This document shows positions 1-46,826 of a DNA stretch of 64,000 nucleotides, in pieces (within the stretch, counting starts at the first letter, position 1; every line of letters starts with the position of its first letter). The notes under the pieces are model-generated. The model saw only the letters and a program-made list of their open reading frames with translations. It did not search any database and was not told where the DNA came from. A program made the translations under genes and the position numbers. Origin of the DNA: a virus; IMG/VR virus record IMGVR_UViG_3300025276_000001, positions 50,100-114,099 of that record; one strand, 5' to 3'.

Positions 1-3000
1 TATCATTTAAAAGAAGTACAAAAGTTAAATGATTTAGCATACTTAGAACAACTTAAAGAACAAGATCCTTATTTAGATAACAATCATCTTTTAAATAATG
101 AAGCCTTTAAGCAATTATCAAATGACAATCAACAAAGAATATTAAGAATAGCGGGAACTGCAGTTGGTAAGATTAATGCTACTGAAGAAGAAATTAATGA
201 TAACATATCTGGTATATCTTCAAGATCTACATATGGTAACTTTACTCCTCAAGAGTTTGCACTTAATTTAATAAACTCTTATACCGGATTACTAAATACT
301 AAATCAGGAAAGGTAAAGTTTGTAGAATACAAAGATGGTAGAACTGGTAAAATGGTTAGGGTAGCATTAACTGCAAGCCTAATAAGAGTTTTAGAATCAT
401 CAAATACTGGAGATCTAATGTACATGCCGGTTGTTAATGCTGTAAGGTATGCAAGTGGTGACAGAGGATCAAGTGTGTTAACTGATGATGTACTTGTAGC
501 TTTTACTAATTCTATAAAGACAGAGTATACACGTATACAAAGAGAAAGGTCTGATGCTTCTAATAAAAATGATGTAGTAGGTTATAACAAAACAGAATTT
601 AATGAAGAGACTGGTGAAGAAATAATTGGTAGAGCATTTAAATTACATAACTCAGCATTATTATTAGATCCAACAGTTAAAGGTCAATTAGAAGAAATAG
701 CAAATAGATCTGAAAGTGTTTCATTTGAAGAAGCTTTAAAAGAATTAACTATAACACCTAAGCAATTTAGTAATCAACTTAATCAAATACTAGAAGCACA
801 GTTTACTGAATTTAAATCTGAACTTGATCAATTAAATATAAGCAGTGAATTAAGTTTCAATGTAAAAAATGGTTTAACTGCAGATGCTAAATTTAGTGAA
901 GCTGCTGAACTACTTAATTTAAAACAAGATAAAGATTATAACTTAAAGCAAATCTTTTTTAGTGACTGGGTAAATACAAAAGCTATTAATGAAATACTAT
1001 TAGGTGATCAAGCTGTAACATTAAAGAATGGTGTAGATGCAATTAAAAGAGCTAAAGCACAAAATGCAGCTACAGTAACTGCAGCAAGTGTTATTGCTGA
1101 TCCAACAGTAGGTGTAATGCATCCAAATCAAAACTTAAGTGCTTTTGTTTTTGAAGAACCAAGAGGTGAATCTTCACTTACAGGTAAATCAATTGATGAA
1201 GCTGATGCGCAAGCATACTACACTCTTAAAGGATTAAGGTATAGTGAGTTTGGTTTTGGTACATTAACTCCAATGCAAGCAGCATTAATTACAAGATTAG
1301 AACAAGGAGAAGACATTCCTTCTGAAGAAATATTTGGACAGGATGGTTTTGTATCTAATGGAAGCATGATCAATTCTAGAAAGCTAGTTTATGCAGATGG
1401 TAAAACATTTATTAAAATGTCTACGTTTGTGTTGATTCCTGCTTATACTTCTAATCCAGTTAGAGATGATAACGGAAACATTATTGACTGGGTGGCTAAG
1501 CCTAATAGAGTAGCTCTACACAATCTTAGAATGAAGATGGAGGCAGAAGAAGTTCTAACTGAAACAACGTCTATAGCGGCTCCCTTAAGTGCATTTAAAA
1601 TGCTTAAGCAGAACGTATCTTCTTTAGAAGAAATAGAAAATACTGATGATGTCTTTACTGAAAAACCTACTAAGTTAAAAGCTAAGTATCTTGGACTACA
1701 AGTTCCAGGTCCATCAAACAAAATGGAAATGGTTGATCCAACACAGATAAAAAACATAGTTACATCAGAACAGAAAGATGACACACCTATACCAGGAATG
1801 CAAATGAATGGTAAAACTATGACTGTTGGTGATGTAAGAAGAGAATACAATAAAGCTACTAGTCAACGTTTTGAATTGAAGTTTAAAAATAAAAGAAATT
1901 TGACTTTTAGTTTTGAATCAGCAATGAATGAATTAAGCATATCTAAAAAGGTTGGAGCAATAACTCCTAACCTAATGGCATTTTTAAAATTTGCTCAGAG
2001 TGGTTTAAAATCATCTCAATCAAGTAGTAATCAATTAGAATTCTTTAGTACAAAAGATGGAGAGCAACAATATGATTTAAATAATCCTATTACTATAAAT
2101 AACTTTGAGAGTTTATTTTTAAACTATTTAAGTAAAGGAACACTTGCTGAGAAAATACCTGGGCATAGTCTTGTATTAGTATCTGACTTTGGAAGTAATA
2201 TATACAGAAGAGTATTTAGCTTTGATGAAAATGGTATTCCTGATAGATCAGTAGTAATAAGACAAAAAGAATGGGAAAGCTCAACAGGTATAAACTCTAG
2301 TGTAAATAATACAATTCAAAATTCTACACAAATAGATGGTCAACCAACTTGGAAAGAAGTTAAAGTACCCGCAGAAGGTGTAGTAATTCTTGACCGTTTA
2401 AGATCAGCTGTAAAAGAATATGATAGTAAAGGAGTAGCAACAGGACTTAGGTATACAGAAATGATGATGCCTTCTCACTATGCTGATGTAATGGATATGA
2501 TTGAGAATGATCCAAGTGCATCTATACCAGATGTGATTGCTAAGATGTTTGCAATACGTATACCATCTCAAGATAATCATTCAACTATAAATAGTAAGTT
2601 GGTAGACTTTATGCCTGCAATCTATGGTTCAGTAGGTATGTATTCAAGAGAACTGGTAGAGATATCAGGAGCGGATTTTGATATTGATAAAGTGTTTAGT
2701 CAAATAAAAGAATGGTACATAAAGAACAATGAGTTTGTTGAGTATGGTAAGACTACTAATGAACGTGAAGCATATGAAAACTATATTGAGTATGTAAAAA
2801 TAAAAGTTAGTAGAAAAGGAACAATATACAATGAAGCATACCAACTAAAAGATTCAGACAATCAATCAATTAGAGAAGGTAACCCTTCAGCGGAAGTTGT
2901 ATCTGATGAATTAGGGCCAGTATATGATCCAGCTATTACTGCATTAGAGATGTTAGGTTTACCAATATCATTTGAACAATATAAAGAATACAAAAATAAA

Positions 3001-5841
3001 AACGGTGAACCTTATGAAGCACCACACAGTAATAAAATTTTAGATTATAAGTATGCTCTGATGGGTAATACAGCAGTAACTGAAGAAGCTTTAGTTGGAG
3101 AACTTCCAATATCATATACTCCGGCAAGTCTAGATATTCTTGAAGATATATGGAAAGAGTTTAGTGATGAGACAGAAGATAGTTCTACTAGATCTGAGTA
3201 TCTAGTTAAGCGTTCTAGAGAAGATAACATTGATATAGATAACTTATTAGGTAAGATAAAAGCTTTTGCTGCAAATAAAGGTGCGGCCATTGGTGCAGTT
3301 GTTTCTCCTAATCAAGCATTGAGTTTACTAACAGAATATAAAATTCCTTTGGGAGGTATAAATGCTCCGGTAATTGAAATAGATGGGGTTACCTTTAATA
3401 GTTTTGAATACTTAAGAGAAAGATTAGCGGATGGTAAACTAGGATTAAGAAAACAAGATATCATTTCTTCTCTGATAACAATGGCAACAGATAATGCTAA
3501 AGAAAGATTAGTTGCTAAACTAGGCCTAAACAAAGAAGCGTTAGCTTTAGTTACAAATATGGTTGCATTAGGTATGCCTATAAAGACTGCTCTACTGTTA
3601 ATCAATCAACCGTTTATTCAGGACATTTATACTGAAGCAATAAATAAAAAAGAGAAGACTGATCCGGGAGTAGATAGTTTGGTTAAGGCACTACTAAGTG
3701 ATAAGAAATATAAGGATCTTCAAATGGTAGATGTTACATCAGGTATGATGCGTGAAGGTTTGGATGTTGAATTATCTGATGCACAAACAATGTCTATCCT
3801 TCTTACTTTCCAAGAAGCATTAAAGGTCTCTAAGTTTACAAAAAACATGAGAGCTGTTTCTGATTTAACAAATGGTTTAGGAAAAGATATTGCAAGTGTA
3901 AACTACAAGAGAGAACAAATGGATTTATTGTTTGAAGAAAATGCAATAATGGATCTTTCACCTATCTATAAAAGTGATACATGGCAGTCTAAATACTTAG
4001 AGGTTTTTGATCAGATATATGATGAGTTGTTGCCTGCTACTTTCTTAAGTGCAAGTCCACAGTTTACAGATATTATGGATGAGTTATTAAAAAGTATTGA
4101 CACACAGAAAATGGAATTTAATTCTGAAGTTCAATCTAAGATTTCTAAAGATTTATTATCATATATAACAATTAAAGCATATCAAAACAATGTAGGTAAT
4201 GGAACAACAGCTTCTATTGCTAATTTAAATAATGACTTTTTATATCCATCTGGTAAAAACTCTATCAATAATATAGTAGAGAACTTAAGACTAACAGAAG
4301 CTGGAAAGAATAACTTCTTTTTAGATACGTTTGCTTTAAGTATTCCGGCAAGTGATAAAAGTAACTTTAGTGGAATGAATCTTTTAATGGCTAATACATT
4401 TAGAAGTTTAAATGCATCACAGAAAGTTGATTTACAAACGTCATTTGCTAAATTGTATGGGTCATTAGAAACTAAAGATGATGCATTATCAATCATTAAT
4501 TATATGATGGTGAAGGATGGTCTTCAGTTATCCTATGGTACATTACTAGAAGCAATATCTCCATTTACAATGAGCTCATATTTAGATCATATAGCAACTG
4601 CTAACTTAGCATTGCGTGATAGTTCTGATTCTAAAATGAATGAAGTTTTTGGAATGACACTAGAAGAAATGAAAACAGACTTTAGAGATGGTTACTTACA
4701 GTCTAATATAAATAATGCTTTGCTTAATACTTTCTCAAGCGCAAACAAAGATGTAAATGTAAAAGATGATGTTGTAAGTGTTAAACTTACAAGTCAACTA
4801 GTTACTAAGGATGTTAACTACATCAGAATAAAAACTATTTCAGGTGATACAGCTTTCTATAAGACATATAAGGTAAATGAAGATTTATCTAATAAAGATG
4901 TACGTACTTTTGAATTGGTTGATACATATGGATCCAACCAACAGAACGGAATAGGTTTTATGTTTGGGCCAAGATCAACATATGCTGAGGTAAGAAACAC
5001 AATTACTGAGCTACATAAAGATCCTATTGAAAGTAATAATCAGTATTCACAAACTGAAGATAGTGATTTATCTCAAAAAGAAAGAGATGTTGAAAAAGTA
5101 ATACAACAAGCTGATGAAGTTGAAATAGTGATTGGATCAGCTAGACAAGGTGGAACAAAAGTAGAAGTAGATGGTAAAAATGTAGCAGATGTAAAACCTG
5201 TTACTGAACAACCTTCTTTTAGAACTATTACATATACACCAACTGGAAAACCTAAACAAGAGTATACTATTGATGGTGATAGAATACTTAATAAAAAAGG
5301 TATTGAGGTTTTTAAATCAATGAGTAAAGACAGACTTAAGATATTTGCTAATCTAGCTATTAAGGAAGGTAGAGCTAAGGTTGTTACATATAGAGGTAAC
5401 AGTTATGTAGTTAATGACAAGAATCAAATAATGTCAGTGCGTACTGGTTTAGAAATGAAGTGGGAGGAAAACAATGGTAATAGAATTGCAGTGTTAAACC
5501 TAGCACAAGATCCACAGAGTATGAACAGACAAGAGTTTGAAGATGCATCTGAGGAAGTTGCAGATGAGTATACTCCTGGTGCTCTATACGGTGCTGCTCT
5601 CCTAGACAATCAAATGACATTGGAGTTTGAAGCAGAAGATAGCGTTAAGCTAACAGAGTTTTGGGATAATGAAGTTGAAAAATATCCAGAAAAAAAGGCT
5701 ATTTTTGCTAATAACAAAATGCCTACTTATAGCAGCATGGTTATGTTTTATAACACACAGAAATTAAAAGGATTCTTTCAAGGAACTGCAGAACAAAGTT
5801 CAGAAGAGGAGTTTATGGAATCATTAAAATGTTTAAGATAA
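1..5841 (+). CDS. Virion-packaged crAss-type RNA polymerase / giant cargo protein (5'-truncated by window)
   Basis: Frame is open from base 1, upstream of the track start at 352. IRIPSQ and GADFDIDK (DxDxD catalytic loop, 2674-2688), plus ATDNAK, as in phi14:2 gp66-type RNAPs. Confidence 0.9.
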   Translation, partial: YHLKEVQKLNDLAYLEQLKEQDPYLDNNHLLNNEAFKQLSNDNQQRILRIAGTAVGKINATEEEINDNISGISSRSTYGNFTPQEFALNLINSYTGLLNTKSGKVKFVEYKDGRTGKMVRVALTASLIRVLESSNTGDLMYMPVVNAVRYASGDRGSSVLTDDVLVAFTNSIKTEYTRIQRERSDASNKNDVVGYNKTEFNEETGEEIIGRAFKLHNSALLLDPTVKGQLEEIANRSESVSFEEALKELTITPKQFSNQLNQILEAQFTEFKSELDQLNISSELSFNVKNGLTADAKFSEAAELLNLKQDKDYNLKQIFFSDWVNTKAINEILLGDQAVTLKNGVDAIKRAKAQNAATVTAASVIADPTVGVMHPNQNLSAFVFEEPRGESSLTGKSIDEADAQAYYTLKGLRYSEFGFGTLTPMQAALITRLEQGEDIPSEEIFGQDGFVSNGSMINSRKLVYADGKTFIKMSTFVLIPAYTSNPVRDDNGNIIDWVAKPNRVALHNLRMKMEAEEVLTETTSIAAPLSAFKMLKQNVSSLEEIENTDDVFTEKPTKLKAKYLGLQVPGPSNKMEMVDPTQIKNIVTSEQKDDTPIPGMQMNGKTMTVGDVRREYNKATSQRFELKFKNKRNLTFSFESAMNELSISKKVGAITPNLMAFLKFAQSGLKSSQSSSNQLEFFSTKDGEQQYDLNNPITINNFESLFLNYLSKGTLAEKIPGHSLVLVSDFGSNIYRRVFSFDENGIPDRSVVIRQKEWESSTGINSSVNNTIQNSTQIDGQPTWKEVKVPAEGVVILDRLRSAVKEYDSKGVATGLRYTEMMMPSHYADVMDMIENDPSASIPDVIAKMFAIRIPSQDNHSTINSKLVDFMPAIYGSVGMYSRELVEISGADFDIDKVFSQIKEWYIKNNEFVEYGKTTNEREAYENYIEYVKIKVSRKGTIYNEAYQLKDSDNQSIREGNPSAEVVSDELGPVYDPAITALEMLGLPISFEQYKEYKNKNGEPYEAPHSNKILDYKYALMGNTAVTEEALVGELPISYTPASLDILEDIWKEFSDETEDSSTRSEYLVKRSREDNIDIDNLLGKIKAFAANKGAAIGAVVSPNQALSLLTEYKIPLGGINAPVIEIDGVTFNSFEYLRERLADGKLGLRKQDIISSLITMATDNAKERLVAKLGLNKEALALVTNMVALGMPIKTALLLINQPFIQDIYTEAINKKEKTDPGVDSLVKALLSDKKYKDLQMVDVTSGMMREGLDVELSDAQTMSILLTFQEALKVSKFTKNMRAVSDLTNGLGKDIASVNYKREQMDLLFEENAIMDLSPIYKSDTWQSKYLEVFDQIYDELLPATFLSASPQFTDIMDELLKSIDTQKMEFNSEVQSKISKDLLSYITIKAYQNNVGNGTTASIANLNNDFLYPSGKNSINNIVENLRLTEAGKNNFFLDTFALSIPASDKSNFSGMNLLMANTFRSLNASQKVDLQTSFAKLYGSLETKDDALSIINYMMVKDGLQLSYGTLLEAISPFTMSSYLDHIATANLALRDSSDSKMNEVFGMTLEEMKTDFRDGYLQSNINNALLNTFSSANKDVNVKDDVVSVKLTSQLVTKDVNYIRIKTISGDTAFYKTYKVNEDLSNKDVRTFELVDTYGSNQQNGIGFMFGPRSTYAEVRNTITELHKDPIESNNQYSQTEDSDLSQKERDVEKVIQQADEVEIVIGSARQGGTKVEVDGKNVADVKPVTEQPSFRTITYTPTGKPKQEYTIDGDRILNKKGIEVFKSMSKDRLKIFANLAIKEGRAKVVTYRGNSYVVNDKNQIMSVRTGLEMKWEENNGNRIAVLNLAQDPQSMNRQEFEDASEEVADEYTPGALYGAALLDNQMTLEFEAEDSVKLTEFWDNEVEKYPEKKAIFANNKMPTYSSMVMFYNTQKLKGFFQGTAEQSSEEEFMESLKCLR

Positions 5842-5848
5842 AATAGAT

Positions 5849-8800
5849 ATGGCAAAATGTCCCAACGTAAATGCAGCAGAGTACAAAGCACTGCAAGCAG
5901 TTTATAAAACTGAAATTGAAACAAACAGTATTATTAATTCTTGGCAGAACGCTAATGAAAGTGATAATTTTCCAACAGCTGTTCAGGCGGCAAAGTTTGT
6001 TAAAACTACAAAGGCTGTCTATGCACTTAAACAAAAGCAGTTTGGTGAAAGTGTTATCAGTAACTTAGTTAATAAGAAACTAATCCACATGTTTAATGGA
6101 AACTATCTTGTTAATGTTGCATACCCAGGTACACAAGAATATAATGCGCAAGCTGTCAAGGATAATTTAAAAGCTATATATAAGTATTTAGATATTAATA
6201 AAATTCCTTTAGAGACTATTGACTTTGCTGCAACAGATAAAACATTTAAAGTAACAATGCTTAATAATGTTTTTACACCTAAAGATATATTAGAATCTAC
6301 ACGTGGGTGGGATACTTCTAGATCACAAAAGGTTGTAGGCCATCTTAAAAGAATGTTTCCGGGGGTTGAGGTAAGATTAGTATCAGTTAAAGAAGCTAAA
6401 AGAATACATGATGGTTTACCAGCATGGAGAAAAACATCAGGTAGCTTTGCTAATGTAAATTCATTTTACTATGATCAAGTAGCTTATTTAGTTAAAGGAA
6501 GAGTAACAAATGAAACAGCAATAGAAGAGATGCTTCATCCATTCATTGATGCTATTAAGGTAGACAATGAATCTTTATTTAATAACTTACTTGAAGAAGC
6601 TAAAGTAAACTTTCCAGAAATGGTTCAGCAGATTACTGAAGCTTATAATAATAAGAGAAACTTTAATGACTTAGATAGAAACTTAGAAATAGTAACACAA
6701 GCATTAACAAGACATTTTAATAATGAATATGAATCACAACCTACTAATTCTTTTTTAAAGTTAATTCAAGATGCATTAGAATGGTTTAAGAGTGTTATAG
6801 AAAACTTACATGAATATGTTACTGGTAATCCTTTGCCTGTTTCTGCTATAAGTAAGAATGCAACGTTTACTGATATTGCTAAATTATTAAATACAGAAGG
6901 TATTAGGTTTAAGTTAGAAAAAAGAGCAAGTGCAAAACTTAGATATTCTTTTACTCCAGAAGTACAAAGTATTTTACAAGGTGCACGTTCTGTTGCTAAC
7001 GGTATTCAGCTAGAAATACTAAATAAGATGTTTGGTATAGCTGAAAAAGATAGTAGAAATAATGATAGGTTATATGCTAATGCGGCTGAGCCAACTGATG
7101 CAGGTCCTAGAATAGTATTCAATCAAAAGGATCACACTTATATAGATGTCAATAATCCTAATGGTCAGGTGTATGCTTCTGCAACAACTGCAATAAAAGG
7201 AAAACTTAGTAATAAAGAAGGTGAAGCAATCATTAGAAGAGATGAAGCACTACAAGCTTTAAGTGATAAAGGTCAAAAGCCTAATGCTAAATTTACTGAG
7301 AAATATAAAAAAGAAATTGCTAATGGAAAAGCAGATGACATCCAAAAAGAAAAAGATGTTAAGCTTAACCTAGATCTGGGTAATGATGTTGACATGATTG
7401 TTGAGTCAATAGTTAAATTAATGAATGGCTATGAAGGAAACATTAATACTGAATTAGAAAAGGCTATGGATAGCATGGCTGTACTTAGCCGTGATCAAGC
7501 AAGAGAATTTTTTGGTGCAATGAAAGTTGCAATAAGAGACTTTATGCCTATTGATGGAATAGCTCTTTCTCAAGTAGTTGTATATGATGAAGCAACAAAA
7601 CTTGCTGGTACTGCAGATTTAGTTATAATTGATAGGAATGGTAAGATTAGAATATTTGATTTAAAGACTAGTAAGAATTCTATAGAGAAGAAAATTTCAT
7701 TATCTCAAAGTGCAGGTAGAAGAGGTTTAGGAAGTTATGAATTTAGTGAATGGACTTTACCAGCTGATAGTAGGTTAAGAAGTGAGAGTAAAGAAAAGAT
7801 AGGTAGAGAAGTAACTAAGTTGAGTACAAAGGGTCAACATAATTTACAAGTAAATCTTTACAGAAGAATGTTTGAGAACATGGGCTTCTCAGTTTATGAA
7901 GGTTCATTTGCAGCATCTACATTTCATGTTCAATTGGATATAGCTAATAAAGGTGAAAAACAAGAGTATAAAGGAACTTGGGATTATGAGGGTAAAGTAG
8001 ATCATTATGAAACTAATATATCTGAAAATAGTGTTTATGTAGACATGCTTATTCCGGCTACTGTTGATAACAGAAACAAGAAAAAACTTGATGCTAAACT
8101 TGCAGAACAACCTGAAGCTCCATATAGAGGAGATCAAGATAAAATGGCTCAAGAAGAAATTGAATCTACTGTTGAGGAAGAAGTAGCACAAGCATTATAT
8201 CCAGAAATGAATACAGTATTTGGTGCGTTAGAATCTTATAGTACTGCATTAGATCAAGCACAAAGAGGAGACCTAAATACTAAGAAAGTATATTCTAAAC
8301 GTTCTAAAGAACAAAGGTTATTGGACATTGCAAAATTACAAGCATATATTACTAGTGGTATTAGCAGAGGTCCTAAAGCACAATCAAAGATCTATACTGG
8401 ATTATTAAGTAATGCTTTAAAAGACATAAGAGAGTTTACTGATTATGTTACTGATCCTAATAATGTAACAGGTGATCCTGAATACATTGGTTTTGTATTA
8501 AACTTTAATAGATTCCTTGCAACTTATGAACCTTTATATGCAATAGAAGGGTCTAAGGAATTAAATGCAACACAACAACAGTTGGTGTTAAATTTAAAAT
8601 TAGAAGTTGATAAATTAATTGGTGGTACTAGATTAGTCTCAGAAGGTAGAGAGGGTATTATCAATGATGCAATTTTTAATTATGTAAAAGAAACAGTAAG
8701 ACTTAGATCATCTAAACAATTTGGTGTAGAAGGTAGTGGGTTTACTGAAGCTGATTTAATTAAAGAATTAACTATAGTTAATGATATCCCTGGTATTGAT

Positions 8801-11800
8801 TTACAAACCAGAGACATGGATACTTCTACAGATACTTTACTTGCTGTAGTAGCTAAGATATACAAATCACAAAAACAACTTTTACTAGACAGGATTCAGT
8901 ATAGAGAAAAAGTAATTAGAACTGCAGGTAATAAAGTATTAATGCTTAGCGGTACTAATAAAGAAAATGCATATAATTATATGCAAAACTTTAATGAGGA
9001 TGGAACACGTAATGGTACTTATGTTAAACCTATTGGTAGTAAGTTTTATGACAAACAAAAAGAACTAAGAGCTGCAACTAGAGATGCTGATAATGTACCA
9101 TATACTTATTTCAATATAAGTGATAAGAACCAAGCATCTGAAGAAGAGCTGGAATACAATATAGATTTAGCAAATAAAAAAAGAGCTGCATCTCAGTTTG
9201 GATTTGCTGAAAGAGTTAATGAAAACGGACAAAGAATTGATGGAGAATACTATTCATATAACCAAGAGTTTATTGATGCAAGAAATAAATTTGAATACTT
9301 TGTAAGTAATGATGCATATGAAGGACGTTGGTTTAAAAAACAAAGAGTTGATAGTGTAGAGTTTAATGCTTATGAAGCTAGATACTATAACATTACCAAA
9401 TATAATCAAGCACTTAGAAATCCTAATGGTGAAGCTACTGGTGTAATCATGCAAGGTGTTGATGGAAGGTTTGTTAAACCGGAGTATAAAGATAAGAATC
9501 AGTTTAGACTAGACAAAGAAGGTAATAGGATAGAAGATTTACGTAGTGATAAATACAAAGCAATATTTGATCCTGCTAAAACTGATGCATTGTCAATAGC
9601 ACAAAGAGAGTTTTATGTTTTATATGTAAAATTCTTTGAAGAAGAGTTGCTTAGAATGTTGCCTGATAACGTTAGGCAATCAATGCTAGGAAAGAACCCT
9701 GTTGTAAAAAGCAATCTTTTAGATGATCTTAAAAATAGACCAAGTATAGTTTCTAGAATGTATGCAAGTAGTGTTAGAGGAGTTAAGAATTTATTCCAAG
9801 AAACTTCTGTACAAAAAGCTGTTCTGCTTGATGAGGTGGGTGACATAACTAATAGTCTACCTATTTTTATGGTAGGAAGCCCAAGGAAAGAAGGGGATAT
9901 GGAAGCTGTAGAAGCAAAAATAATAATCCTTGAAGAGAAGTATAAAAAGAATACTGTTAATAGAGAAACTTATAAAAGTCAGTTAGCAGTATTAACTGGT
10001 GAATTAGCAAAAATAAGAAGTAGACCTTTAGCAAGTGAGCTGAGTGGAGATCTAGCAACAAGTTTAATAAAGTTTAGTGCAATGGCAGAGCACTATGAAG
10101 TTATGGGTCAAATAGAAGATACCTTAACTGCAATACAAAGAGTAGTTAATAATAGACAGTATGAACCGTCTGATGTTAATACAAAATTTGTAGGGCGTGG
10201 ACAGAACTTAATAAATAAAGCTAAGAAACAAGTTGACGCAGCTGTTAGTGGTGTTGAACAAAGTGGATCAGTTGGATTTAAAAAAGAAACAAGTGGTGAT
10301 TCTAATACTGTAAGAAGATTAAGAAAGTATATGTCAATGGTATACTATGATAATGAATTAATCACAAAAGGTGCAGTAGATAAAATAGCTGATCTTTTAA
10401 TTCAACAATCTTCTCTTGCTTATGTAGCCTTTAATCCTTTTGGTAACTTTAATAACTACCTTATGGGTAGGATTAACAACAACATTGAGATGTTGGGTGG
10501 TAGATTCTTTAGTAAGAAAAACTTTCTTAGAGCGGGTGGTGAGTGGAATAAGCAAGCTATAACCGGCCTTGTTGAAAGAACTGGTTCTGGACTTAGAGAT
10601 TTAGCTGATGTATCCACTGCAGGTCTAGCAGGTATTGGTAAGTCTAATTATGATCCTGACTTTGCAAATAATAAGTATGAAGCATTCACACAGCTTCTAA
10701 GAATGATGGATGATTCTACAGACATACGTGAATCTGGTAAAGACTCAGATGGTAAAAGCATATGGGAAAGGTTTAAAGAATGGGGTTATGTAATGCAAGA
10801 TGCTGCAGAGTACAATGTACAAAGTAGAGTAGGTATTGCTATGATCATGGATACTAATTTAATAGATGAAGCAACAGGAGAAACATTATCTATGTATGAT
10901 GCATTTAACTTTAATGCTAAAACTAAAGAGTTAGATTTAGAAAGTGGTAAATGGTCAGTATTAAACAAAGACGGATCTACTCAAGAATACAATGATGCAT
11001 TCAGATATGACTTAAGAAATAAAATTAGAGAAGTCAACAAACAAATTCATGGTAACTACGCTGCAGAAGATAGAATGGTTATTCAATCACATACGCTTGG
11101 TAATTTAGCTGCTCAGTTTCATAAGTGGGTTGCTCCGGCAATTAGAGCTAGATTCCAAACAGAATACTTTGATGAAAATCTTGGATGGATGGAAGGTAGA
11201 TATAAATCTTGGTTTAAGTTTTTGGCTTTCTATTTTAAGAATGTAGTAGAAGCTAAGGGTAACATGAAAGAACTTACTGAAACCTTCTTAAAAGAACAAG
11301 ACGGTTATGATGGTAAAGGTGGTCAAGCGGATCAAAAGGGTAAAAATAGACTTTTTGGATTCTATAGAACAATGGGTGAGATGTCTATTATAGCTGGAGT
11401 ATTTTTAACTAATCAACTTTTAGCAGGTTTATTAGAAGGAGATGATGATGATAGTGATACTGAAAAAAGAATTAAAAACTTAACTAAGTATCAAGGAGAT
11501 AGACTGTATAAGGAATTAGTATTATTTGCTGTTGTTTTACCAGCATCAATGGAACAGATATTTCAAATGGCTAAGTCACCAATTGCTACTACAAGAACAA
11601 TGGGTGAATTAGGTCAAGCTTTAAGTATGACAATATGGACACCATATGAATTAATTACAAAAGGTAAAGAAGGTTATGAGGCAAACTCAGAATACGTATA
11701 TCAAAACAATCCTAATAAAGGACAGTGGAAACTAGGGAAAGAATGGAAAGATGTTATTCCAATTCTATATACTATACAGAAATGGAAGAATGCTCTTAAA

Positions 11801-11824
11801 CTAGATAAGTTCTGGATTAAATAA
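5849..11824 (+). CDS. Giant virion cargo/ejection protein with zincin-like and PD-(D/E)xK nuclease domains
   Basis: 1991 aa, adjacent to the RNAP. EEMLHPF (6524-6538) is zincin-like; AGTADLVII...IFDLKT...QVNLY is nuclease-like; hydrophobic C-terminal helices. Confidence 0.75.
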   Translation: MAKCPNVNAAEYKALQAVYKTEIETNSIINSWQNANESDNFPTAVQAAKFVKTTKAVYALKQKQFGESVISNLVNKKLIHMFNGNYLVNVAYPGTQEYNAQAVKDNLKAIYKYLDINKIPLETIDFAATDKTFKVTMLNNVFTPKDILESTRGWDTSRSQKVVGHLKRMFPGVEVRLVSVKEAKRIHDGLPAWRKTSGSFANVNSFYYDQVAYLVKGRVTNETAIEEMLHPFIDAIKVDNESLFNNLLEEAKVNFPEMVQQITEAYNNKRNFNDLDRNLEIVTQALTRHFNNEYESQPTNSFLKLIQDALEWFKSVIENLHEYVTGNPLPVSAISKNATFTDIAKLLNTEGIRFKLEKRASAKLRYSFTPEVQSILQGARSVANGIQLEILNKMFGIAEKDSRNNDRLYANAAEPTDAGPRIVFNQKDHTYIDVNNPNGQVYASATTAIKGKLSNKEGEAIIRRDEALQALSDKGQKPNAKFTEKYKKEIANGKADDIQKEKDVKLNLDLGNDVDMIVESIVKLMNGYEGNINTELEKAMDSMAVLSRDQAREFFGAMKVAIRDFMPIDGIALSQVVVYDEATKLAGTADLVIIDRNGKIRIFDLKTSKNSIEKKISLSQSAGRRGLGSYEFSEWTLPADSRLRSESKEKIGREVTKLSTKGQHNLQVNLYRRMFENMGFSVYEGSFAASTFHVQLDIANKGEKQEYKGTWDYEGKVDHYETNISENSVYVDMLIPATVDNRNKKKLDAKLAEQPEAPYRGDQDKMAQEEIESTVEEEVAQALYPEMNTVFGALESYSTALDQAQRGDLNTKKVYSKRSKEQRLLDIAKLQAYITSGISRGPKAQSKIYTGLLSNALKDIREFTDYVTDPNNVTGDPEYIGFVLNFNRFLATYEPLYAIEGSKELNATQQQLVLNLKLEVDKLIGGTRLVSEGREGIINDAIFNYVKETVRLRSSKQFGVEGSGFTEADLIKELTIVNDIPGIDLQTRDMDTSTDTLLAVVAKIYKSQKQLLLDRIQYREKVIRTAGNKVLMLSGTNKENAYNYMQNFNEDGTRNGTYVKPIGSKFYDKQKELRAATRDADNVPYTYFNISDKNQASEEELEYNIDLANKKRAASQFGFAERVNENGQRIDGEYYSYNQEFIDARNKFEYFVSNDAYEGRWFKKQRVDSVEFNAYEARYYNITKYNQALRNPNGEATGVIMQGVDGRFVKPEYKDKNQFRLDKEGNRIEDLRSDKYKAIFDPAKTDALSIAQREFYVLYVKFFEEELLRMLPDNVRQSMLGKNPVVKSNLLDDLKNRPSIVSRMYASSVRGVKNLFQETSVQKAVLLDEVGDITNSLPIFMVGSPRKEGDMEAVEAKIIILEEKYKKNTVNRETYKSQLAVLTGELAKIRSRPLASELSGDLATSLIKFSAMAEHYEVMGQIEDTLTAIQRVVNNRQYEPSDVNTKFVGRGQNLINKAKKQVDAAVSGVEQSGSVGFKKETSGDSNTVRRLRKYMSMVYYDNELITKGAVDKIADLLIQQSSLAYVAFNPFGNFNNYLMGRINNNIEMLGGRFFSKKNFLRAGGEWNKQAITGLVERTGSGLRDLADVSTAGLAGIGKSNYDPDFANNKYEAFTQLLRMMDDSTDIRESGKDSDGKSIWERFKEWGYVMQDAAEYNVQSRVGIAMIMDTNLIDEATGETLSMYDAFNFNAKTKELDLESGKWSVLNKDGSTQEYNDAFRYDLRNKIREVNKQIHGNYAAEDRMVIQSHTLGNLAAQFHKWVAPAIRARFQTEYFDENLGWMEGRYKSWFKFLAFYFKNVVEAKGNMKELTETFLKEQDGYDGKGGQADQKGKNRLFGFYRTMGEMSIIAGVFLTNQLLAGLLEGDDDDSDTEKRIKNLTKYQGDRLYKELVLFAVVLPASMEQIFQMAKSPIATTRTMGELGQALSMTIWTPYELITKGKEGYEANSEYVYQNNPNKGQWKLGKEWKDVIPILYTIQKWKNALKLDKFWIK

Positions 11825-11924
11825 TTTAGACAAATTTACATAGAAAAATCTTCTAAGTTTAAATAAGAATGACTATATTATTGTATAAACCTACAGTAGT
11901 ATAGTCATAACTTAATACTTGTAT

Positions 11925-13139
11925 ATGAAAAAAATTATTGTCTTTTTACTTTTATCATTATTTATAACAAGTAATGTATCTGCACAAGGAAAGTTCTTTA
12001 GTGGTTTATATAAGGACTTTTTAAAATACGGTACCGTATACGGTGCTGGAGATATTTCTAATTCCATTGAAGCTGCAGAGCCCACTTACTTTGTAAGAAC
12101 AGGCCAAGACGGCAGTCTATATTCCATTCCTGTTGTGGTTGATAATACTCCTAATTATCCCTTTGATTATAGATACGGAATTGGTATTAGAAAGTTAGCT
12201 AGATTTAGTTATGAAAGAAAGCCTAAAAACTTTTATGACGGAACAGAAAATCAGCTAGCATTTTCAGCACCAACATCTGCTTTCAAAGGTTTAGAATATC
12301 AAATACATTTTGAGAAGGAGAGATGGAGAGGGGAGAATTTTACAAACCACCATTTATTTGTAAAGCACACTGGTAAATATCATATTTTTAAAGTTCAAAG
12401 TAGAGAGGTAGATAAAATCAATTTAGAATTCTTTTCAATTGAAGCTAGAGCTAGGTTACCACTTGGTGAGAAGTTTTCAATATCAGCAGGAGTTATAGCA
12501 CGTGGACACGAAAGAGCATATGGTTATAACCCAATAGAGATATGGTTAAATGAAACTACAGAATATATAAACCCAGATGGTACAACTGAGGAGTTTCCAA
12601 CTAACCCTTGGTATACTTTAGGATTCTTATATGGTTATTCTGATCACTTCACAACTTCTACTGATGCTGCTACAGGAGAAGAAACTCAAGACTGGATTTG
12701 GAAAGATGCTGATGGAAACATAGTAGCACATACTGATTTAGAGTTTAGAGAAAATATATTTACTGACTTAATGAATAGGTACAATGGAGAACAATGGGAG
12801 CTCTTAGATCCTTGGGTAGAGATTGCTCCTATTATAGGTGCTGATTTTTATCATTATAAAGGTAACTTTTGGTTACATGCATATGCTAATTATATATTAC
12901 CAATGCACAGATATATAAAAGGTGATGAAGACTTTTCATACCTAAACAGAAACAACTACGGTGCAGGAGGTTTAAATCCAGAGTCTGAATTAGAACAATG
13001 GAATGATTATTCTGCTGGACTTAGTTTTGGATTTAAAGTAAATAAAAGCTTAGGGGTTTTTGTACAGGGAGAATACTCTAAGATGTGGGATAGTGAATTA
13101 TATCAGACTACATTTGGTCTTAATTATACATTTAGATAG
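11925..13139 (+). CDS. Secreted putative outer-membrane beta-barrel protein
   Basis: Sec signal MKKIIVFLLLSLFITSNVSA|Q, many amphipathic strands, C-terminal beta-signal-like TTFGLNYTFR. ATG 11925 preferred over TTG 11919. Confidence 0.65.
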   Translation: MKKIIVFLLLSLFITSNVSAQGKFFSGLYKDFLKYGTVYGAGDISNSIEAAEPTYFVRTGQDGSLYSIPVVVDNTPNYPFDYRYGIGIRKLARFSYERKPKNFYDGTENQLAFSAPTSAFKGLEYQIHFEKERWRGENFTNHHLFVKHTGKYHIFKVQSREVDKINLEFFSIEARARLPLGEKFSISAGVIARGHERAYGYNPIEIWLNETTEYINPDGTTEEFPTNPWYTLGFLYGYSDHFTTSTDAATGEETQDWIWKDADGNIVAHTDLEFRENIFTDLMNRYNGEQWELLDPWVEIAPIIGADFYHYKGNFWLHAYANYILPMHRYIKGDEDFSYLNRNNYGAGGLNPESELEQWNDYSAGLSFGFKVNKSLGVFVQGEYSKMWDSELYQTTFGLNYTFR

Positions 13140-13141
13140 AT

Positions 13142-13855
13142 ATGAGAACGTTAATTATTTTTATGATAGTATTATTAAGTAGTTGTTCTACTTATAAAGT
13201 AAGTACAATGGGTCACGATCCAGAATACAGTCTTAATCTACCTGATAATATAACGATTGATACCCTTAACTATAGACAATTACAGTGGAAGCTTAGAACA
13301 GACTTTAACTTTAGATATGATTTTGCAGTCTATGCAATGAATCAGCCATTTAATTATAGGTTTGGTAGATACAATAGATTTGGTATGTTTAATCCTCAAT
13401 ATAGTAGCACACAGTATTGGATGAATTGGGCATTTGGAAATACTAATTTTAATATGTGGGACAACTGGGGTTACCCATATAGTAATAACTATGTATGGAA
13501 TGGATGGAGTAATGGATATGGATATAATGCATGGCACCAATTTGGTGGAATTTATGGTAGAAGAATGTCTATACAAGATAGGCGAGGTATAGCTGCTATG
13601 GGAAATTCAAGAATATCTAGAGAAACGACTGCTGTTATTCATGGTAATAACAATACTAGAGTGAGAGTAAAAAGAACTAATGTTAAACCAAAAGTAGTAA
13701 TTAGAAACAAACCTATAAAAGTATATAAGCCTATACCTTTTAGAAATAATTCAATTCCAATTAACAATACTAGAAGTAATAGAGTAGTACGTAACAACAA
13801 TAATAATAGTACAGTAATTAAAACAGTAAGTAGGAACCCTACTAAAAATCAATAA
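13142..13855 (+). CDS. Lipoprotein with W/Y/G/N-rich middle and R/N-rich basic tail
   Basis: MRTLIIFMIVLLSS|C lipobox; low-complexity composition. Confidence 0.7.
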   Translation: MRTLIIFMIVLLSSCSTYKVSTMGHDPEYSLNLPDNITIDTLNYRQLQWKLRTDFNFRYDFAVYAMNQPFNYRFGRYNRFGMFNPQYSSTQYWMNWAFGNTNFNMWDNWGYPYSNNYVWNGWSNGYGYNAWHQFGGIYGRRMSIQDRRGIAAMGNSRISRETTAVIHGNNNTRVRVKRTNVKPKVVIRNKPIKVYKPIPFRNNSIPINNTRSNRVVRNNNNNSTVIKTVSRNPTKNQ

Positions 13856-13860
13856 TAATA

Positions 13861-14145
13861 ATGGCCCAGGAGATAGGAGAAGGAACTAAAGTAACTTTAG
13901 ATCTAAAGACAATAGGAATGATAGTAGGCTTTACAGTTTCATTATCATCAATGTATTTTATACTACAAGCAGATATTGCTCAAGCAATGGTTTTACCAAA
14001 ACCAAGTATAGAAAGAGTTGAGTATGATCTGAAAGATGAACTAATTAGACAAACAATTATGGACACTCAAGAAGATGTTGATGCCATATTAGAAAAAATG
14101 GATAAAATGGAAGAGCGTATGTATGAGCTCATGAAAGGTAAATAG
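13861..14145 (+). CDS. Small single-TM coiled-coil protein
   Basis: TM segment TIGMIVGFTVSLSSMYFIL followed by a heptad-like C-terminus. Confidence 0.6.
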   Translation: MAQEIGEGTKVTLDLKTIGMIVGFTVSLSSMYFILQADIAQAMVLPKPSIERVEYDLKDELIRQTIMDTQEDVDAILEKMDKMEERMYELMKGK

Positions 14146-14147
14146 CA

Positions 14148-14564
14148 ATGAAAAAATTAATTTTTGTATTCATATTATTAGTGTGGAGTCAGTTACTTCA
14201 TGGCCAATCATGGATTGATGATACTAATTTTGGTGATACTATAGCTGATAATTCTACATTTGATGATACTAAAAGCATTATCATAATAGAGTTTTATGCA
14301 GATTTTAACAAACAAAATGCTTTCCATGAATGGGAAAAATTGGATGAAATAGATGGTGTTAAATATTTCAGATGTGATATTACAAAAGCTCCTTCTGCTA
14401 AGAAAGAGTATAGGATCAGAATGGTTCCTACAATACTAATCTTTTCAGAAGGAGAAGCTTTTATAAAATTTAAGGCCAAGGCAGGACTAGACTTACTATG
14501 TCCAGTAGACTTACCTAAAATGCTTAGAGCAATAGAAGTAGTTAAGAGAGAATCACAATTCTAA
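14148..14564 (+). CDS. Secreted thioredoxin-fold protein lacking CxxC
   Basis: Signal peptide ending G|Q; IIEFYADF, CDI and YRIRMVPTILIF thioredoxin signatures; no WCxxC. Confidence 0.7.
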   Translation: MKKLIFVFILLVWSQLLHGQSWIDDTNFGDTIADNSTFDDTKSIIIIEFYADFNKQNAFHEWEKLDEIDGVKYFRCDITKAPSAKKEYRIRMVPTILIFSEGEAFIKFKAKAGLDLLCPVDLPKMLRAIEVVKRESQF

Positions 14565-41532: not shown

Positions 41533-41947
41533 ATTCTCTGATTTGTTTAGTAATGTTACAATGTGCGTTAATAGTTAATGCATCTTTTTGAACAAAGTTA
41601 TTTTCTATTGTTTTAATAGACCATATTATTGTTGCATGATTTCTACCAATGCTGTTTCCTATGGTGCTTTTTCTGTGCCCTTCTTTAAAAGCAAAGAAAG
41701 CCATAAGCTGAGTATAAACTAAATACTCCCTTCTTCTTAGTTGAACATGTAAGCTTTTAATATACCTAAACTCTGGTTCATTAGCATGCAATGCTCTTAT
41801 AACACAGTTGTGTAGGACCTCTAAACTTAACTTAAAACCTGTTTGTTCTTCTGTTAAAATATGTAAGGATACACCGTGCTTCTTGTAGAAACGAGTCTTA
41901 AACTCTTGTATGTCTACCTGCTGTGTAAGGTATTGAATATTAGTCAT
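41429..41947 (-). CDS. DnaA domain IV-like HTH protein
   Basis: STIGNSIGRNHATIIWSIKTIE resembles the DnaA IG..F.RDHTTV signature. Confidence 0.6.
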   Translation of the reverse strand: MTNIQYLTQQVDIQEFKTRFYKKHGVSLHILTEEQTGFKLSLEVLHNCVIRALHANEPEFRYIKSLHVQLRRREYLVYTQLMAFFAFKEGHRKSTIGNSIGRNHATIIWSIKTIENNFVQKDALTINAHCNITKQIREYVGNLPENIKEQTDTKSGLSSIWNKTEDSSTVKN

Positions 41948-41970
41948 TTAGTGTTGGTTTGTGGGGTTTA

Positions 41971-41986
41971 CAAATATAGCAAATTT
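41971..41986 (-). promoter_or_regulatory. Bacteroidota-type -7 promoter element (AAATTTGCTATATTTG)
   Basis: TAnnTTTG 23 nt before ATG 41947; identical to 17500-17515. Confidence 0.6.
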
Positions 41987-42672
41987 TACCATATTATACA
42001 AGATTTACCTTGTCTTTCTAATTCATCATTTACTTTGCCAAATATATTATCAGCCTTCCAAGTGCCACCATTATATGCTGCTGCAGCCGGGTGTGGACAC
42101 TTTAATATTCTTTGTCCTGGTATAACTAACTGCCAAGATTCTGCTTTCCTACCCATTAATATAAATATGATATCCTTATCTATCTTATTAATAGATTCAA
42201 ATATATATTCTGTAAATGGTTTCCATATAGCATAATGGGATCCAATCTTGTTAACTTCACAAGTCTGAGCTGTATTAATAAGCAATACACCTTGGTTAGC
42301 CCAACGTCTTAAATCACTATCATATCCTCCTTGCATGCCATATAACTCTTTAAAAATATACCTAAGAGATGGTTGAGGTTTCTCAGTGTTAGAACAACTA
42401 AATGCTATTCCATCTGCAACACCTAATTGTGGATAAGGATCTTGTCCTACTACTACTACTTTAAGATCTGATAGGTTTGTTTCTTTAAATGCATTGAATG
42501 CATCCTTTAACCTAGGAGTAAATCTTCTATTTTGTTCTACTAATCTTATTAGTGTATCAGTTATATTATCAAACTCTTTGCTATCTAAGAAAGGGTTTAA
42601 TATTTTGTGCCATCCTGATGACTCAAGGTCCTCCTTAAGAGTTTCCTTGATTAAATCTATTTTATCTTGCAT
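41986..42672 (-). CDS. ung: Uracil-DNA glycosylase (family 1)
   Basis: VVVGQDPY, GIAFS, PSLRYI, WANQGVLLIN, HP motif. Confidence 0.9.
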   Translation of the reverse strand: MQDKIDLIKETLKEDLESSGWHKILNPFLDSKEFDNITDTLIRLVEQNRRFTPRLKDAFNAFKETNLSDLKVVVVGQDPYPQLGVADGIAFSCSNTEKPQPSLRYIFKELYGMQGGYDSDLRRWANQGVLLINTAQTCEVNKIGSHYAIWKPFTEYIFESINKIDKDIIFILMGRKAESWQLVIPGQRILKCPHPAAAAYNGGTWKADNIFGKVNDELERQGKSCIIW

Positions 42673-42688
42673 ATTTTTGCTATCTTTG
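42673..42688 (+). promoter_or_regulatory. Bacteroidota-type -7 promoter element (TTTGCTATCTTTG)
   Basis: TATCTTTG at 42681-42688, 18 nt before ATG 42707. Confidence 0.6.
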
Positions 42689-42706
42689 TATTATAAATTA
42701 TTTATT

Positions 42707-43144
42707 ATGGCTGAAGAACAGAAACAACACGAAACTGAAACTTATGATTTTACTAAAAATATCACTGATATTGAAGTAAGTCCTGCGTTTATTATAGGTT
42801 TACAAAGAATTTGTAATCAGTTAATTGTTAGTAAGCCAGAAAGGGGTGCTGAAATGCCAGCTATCTTCAAAAAGTTTGAAAAGATAGTGCACTACTATGG
42901 TAATAAAGATGAATATGAGGAAGAGCCTGTAGTAGAATTAGATGTCTTTGAATCTGATATCTATACTTTGTTTTCTCTTATTCAGTTGTTTAAGCATAAA
43001 GCTAAAGAACAAGGTCTTCAGGTATTAACTGAGACTAATGTTACTAAAGTAGAAATGCAAGAACTAGCTAAGATAGTTGAAGCAGGTGGTGACGCTACTG
43101 AAAAAATTAGAGAGCTGAATGCTAAAATGACTGTTGTTAAATAG
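42707..43144 (+). CDS. Hypothetical protein, lone plus-strand gene in the minus block
   Basis: MAEEQKQHET start; the track's extension to 42494 overlaps ung on the opposite strand. Confidence 0.7.
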   Translation: MAEEQKQHETETYDFTKNITDIEVSPAFIIGLQRICNQLIVSKPERGAEMPAIFKKFEKIVHYYGNKDEYEEEPVVELDVFESDIYTLFSLIQLFKHKAKEQGLQVLTETNVTKVEMQELAKIVEAGGDATEKIRELNAKMTVVK

Positions 43145-43528
43145 TTATCTTAGATTCATATTACTAAAGTCTCCAATTTCTACACATGCTTGTATAACTA
43201 AGTTTAATTCTTCTTTATCACAATCTCCAAAAGACTTGCAATATTCTTGCTTGTCTCTTACAAAACATAAACCTGAAGCTCTTTTAACTGCTAGTTTAGC
43301 TTCTTCAAATGTATAGCCAATTTCTTGTGCTATCTCTCTGATCATTGCATGTATCCTAGCTAACTGAGGATTACTGCCTTTATCACCGCTCACTCCTATA
43401 AAGATCTCTAATTTAGAGTCATCAGGTAACTGATTCAGAAACTTTTTAAACTTAGTTCCTGTAGCTTTTATAGGGAAATGTAATTCTCCATCTTTAATAG
43501 ATGCTTTTACAAATAGGTTATCTTTCAT
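43145..43528 (-). CDS. NinB/YbcN-like protein
   Basis: SNPQLARIHAMIREIAQEIG...KSFGDCDKEEL. Confidence 0.55.
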   Translation of the reverse strand: MKDNLFVKASIKDGELHFPIKATGTKFKKFLNQLPDDSKLEIFIGVSGDKGSNPQLARIHAMIREIAQEIGYTFEEAKLAVKRASGLCFVRDKQEYCKSFGDCDKEELNLVIQACVEIGDFSNMNLR

Positions 43529-43585
43529 ATACTACTATTACGTGGGTTCCTGGTTGTTCATCACCTGGGTCTGATATTATTATAG

Positions 43586-43783
43586 TCATAATTGTGATAT
43601 AAATTTAGTGAGGTAGTTAACTACCCATGTTATTACTGGCCATGCAAATACTACTACCATACATCCAATACCAAATAACATAGTGAACATACATCCTTTA
43701 TATTTTTTAGTAATTTTAGCATCTTCATAAGATTCTAAATCTTTTAACTCTTTAGCTCTTTTGTGAAATTCAGTATTTTTCAT
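43586..43783 (-). CDS. Small membrane protein
   Basis: One TM helix. Confidence 0.5.
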   Translation of the reverse strand: MKNTEFHKRAKELKDLESYEDAKITKKYKGCMFTMLFGIGCMVVVFAWPVITWVVNYLTKFISQL

Positions 43784-43925
43784 ATCCTCTGTTTTTTATA
43801 TCCCATGCATCACGGTAGTCTGGGTCATGTGGATCTAACTCTAAGCTAGATCTATCATGTACCCATTTACCACTAATGTAAACATAGGTCCTGTTATTAA
43901 TTATTTTACTTATTCTATCACTCAT
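43770..43925 (-). CDS. 51-aa hypothetical protein, not in ORF track
   Basis: MSDRISKIINNRTYVYISGKWVHD...; overlaps both neighbours by a few nt. Confidence 0.5.
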   Translation of the reverse strand: MSDRISKIINNRTYVYISGKWVHDRSSLELDPHDPDYRDAWDIKNRGYEKY

Positions 43926-44169
43926 AACTTTCTAGTATTTCTTCTTCTATATCATACTGGTTAACTATGTCTAGAGGAAGTATATCAACCATTACATCAT
44001 TATTATTTCTATCCTTTAATAATGAGTATGCTGCAGTAATTTCTACACTAGGAGCTATACCAGGTGTTCCTGGGTCTCCATTAGATTCTGTCCACACTTC
44101 TGCTTCACCTGGATCATAAGTATAAACTACATCTAGTTCTATACCATCCATATCATATGTAAACTCCAT
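43918..44169 (-). CDS. Acidic hypothetical protein
   Basis: 83-aa ORF. Confidence 0.6.
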   Translation of the reverse strand: MEFTYDMDGIELDVVYTYDPGEAEVWTESNGDPGTPGIAPSVEITAAYSLLKDRNNNDVMVDILPLDIVNQYDIEEEILESYE

Positions 44170-44170
44170 A

Positions 44171-44407
44171 TTATAAGAATCTTAGTGCTGATCCTACATA
44201 AACAAATTGTTGCTCACACTCTAAACATTTAGCATTACCTTCATTACGTAATAATGATGGTTGATTACAATTGGGACAAGGTGTATCACCTTCAGTAATA
44301 TATTCTTCTATTGCACGCCTAGATAAACCATGTATCATTGCGTCATGGGTACCTTTGTACTCTAATTCCTCCTGCTGTTCTATGAACAATTCTTTCATCC
44401 TTCCCAT
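44171..44407 (-). CDS. Zn-ribbon protein
   Basis: CPNC...CLEC. Confidence 0.65.
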   Translation of the reverse strand: MGRMKELFIEQQEELEYKGTHDAMIHGLSRRAIEEYITEGDTPCPNCNQPSLLRNEGNAKCLECEQQFVYVGSALRFL

Positions 44408-44568: not shown

Positions 44569-44570
44569 TT

Positions 44571-45689: not shown

Positions 45690-45759
45690 AGTGTTATTGT
45701 TATTATTAAGATTATTGTATAAACTACTAATATTAGTAACTTATCTTTTTTGTTATTTT

Positions 45760-46703: not shown

Positions 46704-46744
46704 ATGGCATGTGGTATTAAGTTTAGTGATAAGTAATTTGTAAT

Positions 46745-46810: not shown

Positions 46811-46826
46811 TCTTTAGAATTTATTG

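Follow-up and report, generated by a model that had tools for sequence, protein, structure and literature searches.

The window analysed here is the final 64 kb (64,000 nucleotides, nt) of the 114,099-bp virus record IMGVR_UViG_3300025276_000001, which carries direct terminal repeats and stems from an uncultured aquatic crAss-like phage. It opens inside a giant open reading frame, ORF1, which is followed on the same strand by a second one, ORF2, and our analysis concerns the single cysteine (Cys) that each of the two proteins retains at the end facing the other. The whole of ORF1 spans genome positions 41673-55940 and encodes 4,755 amino acids (aa; 529 kDa), with 8,427 nt extending upstream of the window. 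The elements around the junction, in window coordinates, are as follows.

1-5841, plus strand: C-terminal 1,946 aa of ORF1, in a frame open from base 1
5506-5625, plus strand: acidic linker of ORF1, poorly conserved and predicted to be disordered (AlphaFold2, pLDDT <50)
5629-5838, plus strand: C-terminal tail module of ORF1 (aa 4686-4755), predicted by AlphaFold2 as a four-helix module and ending in ...EEEFMESLKCLR
5830-5832, plus strand: TGT codon of Cys4753, the sole Cys of ORF1, third from the C-terminus (...SLKCLR, then the stop)
5839-5841, plus strand: TAA stop codon of ORF1
5842-5848, plus strand: spacer of 7 nt between ORF1 and ORF2, AATAGAT
5849-11824, plus strand: ORF2, 1,991 aa (226 kDa), a gp49-like cargo protein associated with RNA polymerase (RNAP), assigned by phmmer and family profile
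5849-5893, plus strand: N-terminal motif of ORF2, MAKCPNVNAAEYKAL, from the family alignment and logo
5858-5860, plus strand: TGT codon of Cys4, the sole Cys of ORF2 (MAKCP)

By homology, ORF1 unites a gp47-like zincin protein and a gp50-like virion RNAP in one chain, and ORF1 and ORF2 together are the RNAP cargo of a crAss-like phage. Alignments to the family profiles place residues 2154-2295 of ΦcrAss001 gp47 on ORF1 profile positions 2114-2246 (E 5e-9), residues 1393-1509 of gp50 on ORF1 positions 3513-3619 (E 5e-16) and residues 529-1298 of gp49 on ORF2 positions 868-1840 (E 1e-40), and the gp47-like, RNAP and gp49-like segments are collinear in ORF1 and ORF2. The ORF1 profile also matches the Rudgehvirus RNAP and Carjivirus gp44 (E 1e-13 each), and tblastn aligns ORF1 with the Rudgehvirus RNAP catalytic subunit; ORF2 matches ΦcrAss001 gp49 directly (phmmer, E 4e-21), and its profile matches the C-terminal third of a Rudgehvirus protein of 4,098 aa (E 2e-16). 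Upstream of the window, at ORF1 aa 2175-2179, a HEAFH zincin motif is invariant in the alignment of homologs, and so is the column of Cys4753. No significant sequence match in the PDB was obtained for the ORF2 protein, the ORF2 family profile or ORF1 aa 2350-4755. That both proteins are carried in virions is suggested by mass spectrometry (MS) of their homologs in ΦcrAss001 and phi14:2.

ORF1 and ORF2 contain two Cys in 6,746 aa, whereas ~82 would be expected from the Cys content of the rest of the genome (1.21%, 289 in 23,901 aa; Poisson P of two or fewer ~1e-32). The probability that both single Cys fall within five residues of the facing ends is ~2.6e-6 under uniform placement. The depletion extends over a block of five contiguous genes (genome 32139-61923) with four Cys in 9,890 aa, a frequency of 0.04% compared with 1.21% in the remaining genome. 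An earlier note on this DNA, made from the window alone, had the reading frames, the 7-nt gap and the codons of both single Cys right. Its observation of only two Cys stood, while its figure of ~3,900 aa has to be raised to 6,746 aa as ORF1 runs upstream; it had named many Cys in the part of ORF1 outside its view as an outcome that would refute its reading, and those 2,809 aa contain none. It had also described the visible ~1,946 aa of ORF1 as an RNAP; the gp50-like RNAP part of this is retained, and the whole protein is the 4,755-aa fusion with the gp47-like zincin protein.

The ORF1/ORF2 family is large and comes from aquatic metagenomes; we sampled it as 93 clusters of ORF1 homologs (2,789-5,993 aa) and 120 clusters of ORF2 homologs (41-100% identity). 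A single Cys lies two to four residues from the end in 90 of the 93 ORF1 clusters and at residue 3-5 in 118 of the 120 ORF2 clusters, and the pooled clusters hold 213 Cys in 660,733 residues, three of which are non-terminal. The terminal Cys co-occur, as the reading of the earlier note requires: all 67 IMG/VR contigs that show both ends carry both, down to 35% identity. Its suggestion that selection has purged every Cys but the terminal pair agrees with the invariance of this pair across more than 200 homolog clusters. The full triple, consisting of a Cys-free protein of ~1,100 aa, an ORF1 with a single Cys at position -2 to -5 (negative numbers count from the C-terminus) and an ORF2 with a single N-terminal Cys, is present in more than 60 of the 73 loci that cover near-complete ORF1 and ORF2. 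At the N-terminus of ORF2, the family pattern is M-A-x-C-[PYL]-N-x-N-x-x-[EG]-Y-x-A-L (logo of 119 clusters), with M1, C4, N6 and N8 invariant in 36 sequences. Fused ORF1-ORF2 homologs, for which the earlier note had suggested to look, exist in other families (Rudgehvirus, Carjivirus), whereas none was found in this family among hits of up to 8,322 aa.

This constraint bears on the simplest alternative, namely that the Cys have no function and are tolerated at disordered chain ends, or that their codons reflect a nucleotide element at the junction. Chain ends are usually weakly constrained and the two genes lie very close together, which would suit such an explanation. Toleration, however, predicts sporadic Cys rather than the invariance observed at identities as low as 35%; in an alignment of 34 phages over the final 170 aa of ORF1 (mean column identity 20%), no column other than that of the Cys is invariant. 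The synonymous sites of the codons around both Cys vary, TGT interchanges with TGC among relatives, and the spacer ranges from -1 to 24 nt in relatives without a common sequence. Since spacer length and sequence differ in this way, there is no conserved nucleotide element at the junction, and the variation of synonymous sites, Cys codons and spacer together argues that selection acts on the residue; in other lineages, moreover, the Cys are kept even by partners on opposite strands (see below). We therefore regard an absence of function as scarcely credible.

To place the pair in a wider context, the arrangement of the gp47-, gp50- and gp49-like segments was compared across eight lineages of Crassvirales, with the architectures confirmed by profiles and, for Fpv1, by tblastn. 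Each entry below gives the separate chains and the positions of their Cys.

phi14:2, three chains: g067 has a Cys at the last residue only, g066 at 3 and -2 only, g065 at 3 only
ΦcrAss001, three chains: gp47 at -3; gp50 at +5 and -9, with one more internal; gp49 at +5
DAC17, three chains: 56 at -3; 58 at +5 and the last residue, with three more internal; 57 at +4, with one more internal
Rudgehvirus, gp47-like chain and fused gp50-gp49-like chain: -2 facing +3
Carjivirus communis, gp47-like chain and fused gp50-gp49-like chain: -2 facing +3
ORF1/ORF2 family, fused gp47-gp50-like chain and gp49-like chain: -3 facing +4
Fpv1, fused gp47-gp50-like chain and gp49-like chain: -2 facing +3
cr50_1, fused gp47-gp50-like chain and gp49-like chain: -2 facing +3

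Facing C-terminal and N-terminal Cys are present at 11 of 11 split boundaries and a Cys pair at none of the five fused junctions, where eight lineages are few and boundaries were counted as such, not as phylogenetically independent events. At the two outer ends of the gp47-gp50-gp49 unit, a Cys never occurs. The gp47-like genes of crAss001 and DAC17 are encoded on the strand opposite to their partners and the terminal Cys are still kept, which rules out an artefact of the gene junction.

A natural split within the family, found once, follows the same pattern. At one locus (L146, IMGVR_UViG_3300002143_000153), the ORF1 tail module is a free-standing protein of 148 aa (tail profile, E 5e-14) directly upstream of ORF2, whose only Cys are those at +3 and -4 of the 148-aa chain; the shortened ORF1' retains a single Cys, located in its new C-terminal extension. 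Between the ORF1 homolog and the detached tail module of this locus, inside an otherwise Cys-free cargo block, a gene of 609 aa is inserted (L146:17537-19366) that has a YkuD L,D-transpeptidase domain (PF03734, E 1.6e-5) and four Cys. Other apparent splits were rejected: the short homolog P0199 is a truncated gene call, because the 97% identical L111 has an intact ORF of 4,462 aa, and the breaks in L142 and L155, which resemble frameshifts in overlapping frames and bring no additional Cys, are probably assembly errors.

The distribution over chain ends also allows the possible partners of the Cys to be weighed. Each terminal Cys might have a partner other than the facing chain: it could pair with its counterpart in another copy of its own protein (C-C or N-N homodimers) or attach to a virion part such as the portal crown, the interior of the capsid or a small cargo protein, so that the Cys would be anchors and not form chains. 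Homodimer disulfides do occur in crAss001 gp57, and the C-terminal Cys of Carjivirus gp47 (-2) and Rudgehvirus gene49 (-11) are unpaired, meaning that a head-to-tail partner is not obvious for every terminal Cys. Anchoring does not account for Cys that occur at facing ends only and never at outer ends, that are balanced between C- and N-terminus at every boundary and both gone at fused junctions, and that the detached module of L146 has gained exactly at its new N-terminus; and in the cyanophage A4, to which we return at the end, the observed partner is the facing chain. Binding to another partner thus appears rather unlikely. The same data speak to the idea that the Cys are not linked in the virion and act after ejection, or serve as a recognition or packaging signal or as a modification site. 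Both lie within conserved short motifs (…F-I-E-x-I-K-x-C-x-L and M-A-x-C-P-N-K-N…), as a signal would. Between crass families, however, the flanking motifs differ (…RCNS/MSKRC; …NTIC/MAC; …KNCN/MAC) whereas the Cys is kept, as is its spacing from the terminus, and a signal of chain ends should mark the outer ends too, where Cys is lacking; we consider such a role unlikely. Among modifications and joining reactions of other kinds, prenylation of the CaaX type was rejected, with zero to four residues after the Cys (eight in crAss001 gp50) and bacterial hosts, and a split intein was rejected as no intein blocks are present.

Structure prediction is in keeping with a link between the facing ends. 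In the AlphaFold2 model of a 170-aa piece of ORF1, the linker (residues 60-99), whose length and sequence vary in the alignment, precedes the tail module, whose helices (106-116, 120-128, 134-146 and 158-168) are modelled with pLDDT 81-96; Cys4753 is predicted at the end of the last helix, behind the disordered linker. Residues 1-9 of ORF2 are modelled as coil, with Cys4 in a free N-terminal stub before the first helix. A co-fold of ORF2 residues 1-700 with ORF1 residues 4560-4755 using family alignments gave an ipSAE of 0.12, a value that bears neither way on binding.

Were the two Cys joined to each other, the link might still be a bridging metal ion or other thiol chemistry instead of a disulfide. 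Nothing in the present data separates a disulfide from other thiol-based links, and invariant Asn (N6, N8) and acidic residues lie beside the Cys. The shared metal site that the earlier note had offered as an option finds no support: neither His nor a second Cys is conserved near either Cys in the ORF1/ORF2 family, crAss001, phi14:2, DAC17 or Fpv1, and a structural metal ion would be poorly held by two thiolates without further ligands. Together with the sole solved case of this geometry (A4), which is a disulfide, this makes a non-disulfide link distinctly improbable.

The reading we favour, and hold to be probably correct, is that ORF1 Cys4753 and ORF2 Cys4 form an inter-chain disulfide in the assembled virion, joining the proteins 1:1 and head to tail in place of the peptide bond of the fused lineages. 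The earlier note had proposed such a bond from the end of ORF1 to the start of ORF2, and the fission/fusion pattern and the A4 cryo-electron microscopy (cryo-EM) disulfide of the same geometry now lend it support by homology and analogy. Internal Cys have been purged from ORF1 and ORF2 as in other ejected phage proteins, with one Cys retained at the C-terminal end of ORF1 and one in the N-terminal stub of ORF2. Bonding of Cys4753 to Cys4 inside the particle would then join the 529-kDa and 226-kDa proteins, the Cys pair substituting for the peptide bond that connects the same segments where the genes are fused. Such a disulfide could fix both packaging stoichiometry and ejection order. Because the Cys are at the extreme chain ends, the joined pair would stay nearly linear, fit the narrow tail channel and might pass through it as a thread, to be released by reduction in the host cytoplasm, as the earlier note had also suggested.

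Extended to the order as a whole, the RNAP machine of ~6,700 residues might be a 'disulfide-stitched polyprotein' across Crassvirales, in which a Cys pair replaces the peptide bond at each gene cut and the pieces are packed 1:1 in fixed order, leave as one thread and are freed by the reducing cytoplasm. In it, the ORF1 tail module, seen in L146 as a separate adaptor with two Cys, would be a portable clasp for the link. We put this generalization forward tentatively and consider it more doubtful than the bond between ORF1 and ORF2.

Several points weigh against the proposed disulfide. For crAss-like phages it is deduced from sequences, and because the phage is uncultured, it is by homology to MS-proven virion proteins in crAss001 and phi14:2 that ORF1 and ORF2 are taken to be packaged. 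Since the cytoplasm in which virions are put together is reducing, the bond would have to form once assembly is complete or the cell has lysed. The partner Cys in ORF1' of L146 lies 62 residues from the end and not at the tip, some lineages have extra internal Cys (Carjivirus gp44 has seven, one of which, Cys 2220, is possibly close to the fused junction), and the small upstream cargo proteins of Carjivirus and Rudgehvirus mentioned above have a C-terminal Cys without a visible partner. Finally, the A4 proteins have no detectable similarity to ORF1 or ORF2: comparison of the ORF1 and ORF2 family profiles with the proteins of A4 (Anabaena phage A-4L) gave E > 0.4, and A4 did not appear in the fold searches, where the absence of A4 gp26 from the VIA-align matches of the ORF2 N-terminal model (pLDDT 71) does not exclude a relationship.

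Further features of the two genes, again in window coordinates, are these.

2671-2691, plus strand: ADFDIDK (ORF1 aa 3700-3706), candidate DxDxD metal-binding motif of a two-barrel RNAP, from the alignment
7097-7888, plus strand: PD-(D/E)XK nuclease-like domain (ORF2 aa 417-680; phrog_298 exonuclease, E 5e-10)
9992-11263, plus strand: ORF2 aa 1382-1805, aligning directly with ΦcrAss001 gp49 aa 800-1193 (phmmer)

ADFDIDK is invariant across 31 diverse ORF1 homologs and is part of the region aligning with ΦcrAss001 gp50 and with the proteins annotated as RNAP catalytic subunits in Rudgehvirus and Carjivirus; DxDxD is what we take to be the catalytic motif of this two-barrel RNAP class, for which ADFDIDK is a candidate. 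In the nuclease-like domain of ORF2, D580, D604 and K606 are invariant in the family alignment, and PF12705 scores 17.4 bits, under its cut-off of 22 bits. For the model of the N-terminal part of ORF2, Foldseek returned no match at E <= 1e-3, and VIA-align gave zincin-like folds as best matches over residues 151-350 (window 6299-6898), among them the anthrax lethal factor N-domain and PPEP endopeptidases; this resemblance is weak, with Z values (6.4-6.7, best 6.7) below the trustworthy level. The same region holds the invariant residues H165, E226, E227 and H230. Among the ORF1 homologs, which reach 5,993 aa, some have extra Pfam domains (PF08719, PF13532, which is AlkB according to one source, PF18760 and PF09397) in the manner of 'polyvalent' injected proteins; these homologs (P0126, P0153, P0155, P0160, P0173, P0180, P0186, P0188 and P0193) have no Cys besides the single terminal one, except the truncated P0180 (3,328 aa, no Cys).

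Upstream of the window, the Cys-poor block includes a cargo protein of 1,094 aa (genome 32139-35423; L018:5140-8421), a homolog of Rudgehvirus gene49 (E 9e-15), whose sole two Cys, at 879 and 892, are spaced 13 residues apart. Close Cys pairs are also found in similarly placed cargo of crAss001 (gp45, 390/398), phi14:2 (g069, 369/378) and DAC17 (54, 211/219 and 273/281), and may represent a conserved internal disulfide or metal site of these upstream proteins. Among Intestiviridae, Carjivirus gp47 (L105) and Rudgehvirus gene49 (L021) have a single Cys near the C-terminus and are each followed by a Cys-free protein. Just upstream of the block, a virion protein of 1,438 aa (genome 27756-32072; L018:757-5070) has six Cys and matches the PHROG families endolysin, transglycosylase and LysM-motif protein. 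Terminase and portal genes are also present in the genome (window 56502-61466).

Downstream of ORF2 (window 11919-14564), three genes on the same strand each encode an envelope-targeting signal and appear to form an envelope module, not part of the cargo: a protein of 406 aa with a signal peptide, a lipoprotein of 237 aa whose lipobox, LLSSC, contains its only Cys, and a secreted thioredoxin-fold protein of 138 aa with ADFNKQ in place of CxxC. This last gene, three genes past ORF2, was considered as a phage-encoded oxidase and rejected, because despite its signal peptide it has no CxxC motif.

In the human gut no viruses are more abundant than crAss-like phages, which are also common in aquatic metagenomes. 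The present reading bears on how they pack and inject megadalton amounts of protein, RNAP included, a cargo that is invisible in the cryo-EM maps of ΦcrAss001. The proposed bond, if true, would account for the free splitting and fusing of cargo genes in evolution, for a possible means of setting stoichiometry and the order of ejection, and for a Cys depletion that halts exactly at the chain ends. Giant Cys-free ORFs with one Cys per facing end would, in addition, be a simple marker for chains of ejected proteins in the genomes of uncultured phages. Suppression of Cys in ejected proteins is already known from N4-like phages; the terminal Cys pair in Crassvirales we did not find in the literature, where a search that did not include the paper on the phi14:2 virion RNAP (vRNAP) structure (Drobysheva et al, 2021) yielded no account of terminal Cys pairs in Crassvirales cargo.

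Among the closest known systems are the homologous cargoes of ΦcrAss001 and phi14:2. In ΦcrAss001, gp47, gp50 and gp49 are virion proteins by MS, the cargo is thought to unfold partly for ejection through the tail, and virions contain inter-subunit disulfides, including those of the gp57 homodimer (Bayfield et al, 2023; PMC10172136). The same study analysed virions by LC-MS/MS both with and without reduction. The phi14:2 homologs are MS-proven virion proteins according to the record annotation, in which g066 is called 'Catalytic RNA polymerase subunit', and the 5,398 aa of g067-g066-g065 include four Cys, each of them at an end that faces another chain. Both phages differ from the present one in having three chains instead of two, because the gp47/gp50 boundary is fused in the ORF1/ORF2 family, without Cys at that place, and ORF2 differs from their gp49-like proteins by an extra N-terminal region with the PD-(D/E)XK nuclease-like domain.

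In Schitoviridae, Cys is suppressed in the ejection proteins N4 gp50 (the vRNAP) and DEV gp71-gp73, which has been attributed to their route through the periplasm or the tail (PMC11445570; PMC2784036). These phages share with ORF1/ORF2 a giant virion-packaged RNAP with companion ejection proteins and a near-total suppression of Cys. They differ in that their vRNAP is a single chain of the T7-like polymerase class and in that they have no conserved Cys whatever, whereas ORF1 and ORF2 keep one invariant Cys per facing end.

A bond of the proposed kind has been seen in the cyanophage A4, where cryo-EM resolved a disulfide between gp27 Cys1715 and gp26 Cys5 that holds the C-terminal helix of gp27 in a cleft of gp26 and belongs to the pre-ejectosome, located inside the capsid (PNAS 2025; PMC12002296). 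Because this capsid-internal assembly has one, disulfides can form inside capsids. The A-4L sequences show a single Cys in each of the two neighbouring proteins, at -3 in gp27 (1,717 aa) and at +5 in gp26 (1,114 aa), so that both systems comprise adjacent genes for large capsid-internal ejection proteins (in our case presumed to be so) with one Cys each at facing ends, the Cys of the upstream protein lying at the end of its C-terminal helix and the spacing being -3/+5 there and -3/+4 here. The systems differ in that A4 has no virion RNAP and one pair only, which is part of a pentameric ring encircling the portal axis. The precedent is an analogy, given that homology to ORF1 or ORF2 is not detectable, and in the A4 paper the bond is mentioned for its stabilising effect, without being made a rule that relates to Cys depletion or to the fission and fusion of genes (PMC12002296). 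If the reading proposed here is true, it would widen a bond mentioned in passing for one cyanophage to a rule across unrelated ejection systems.

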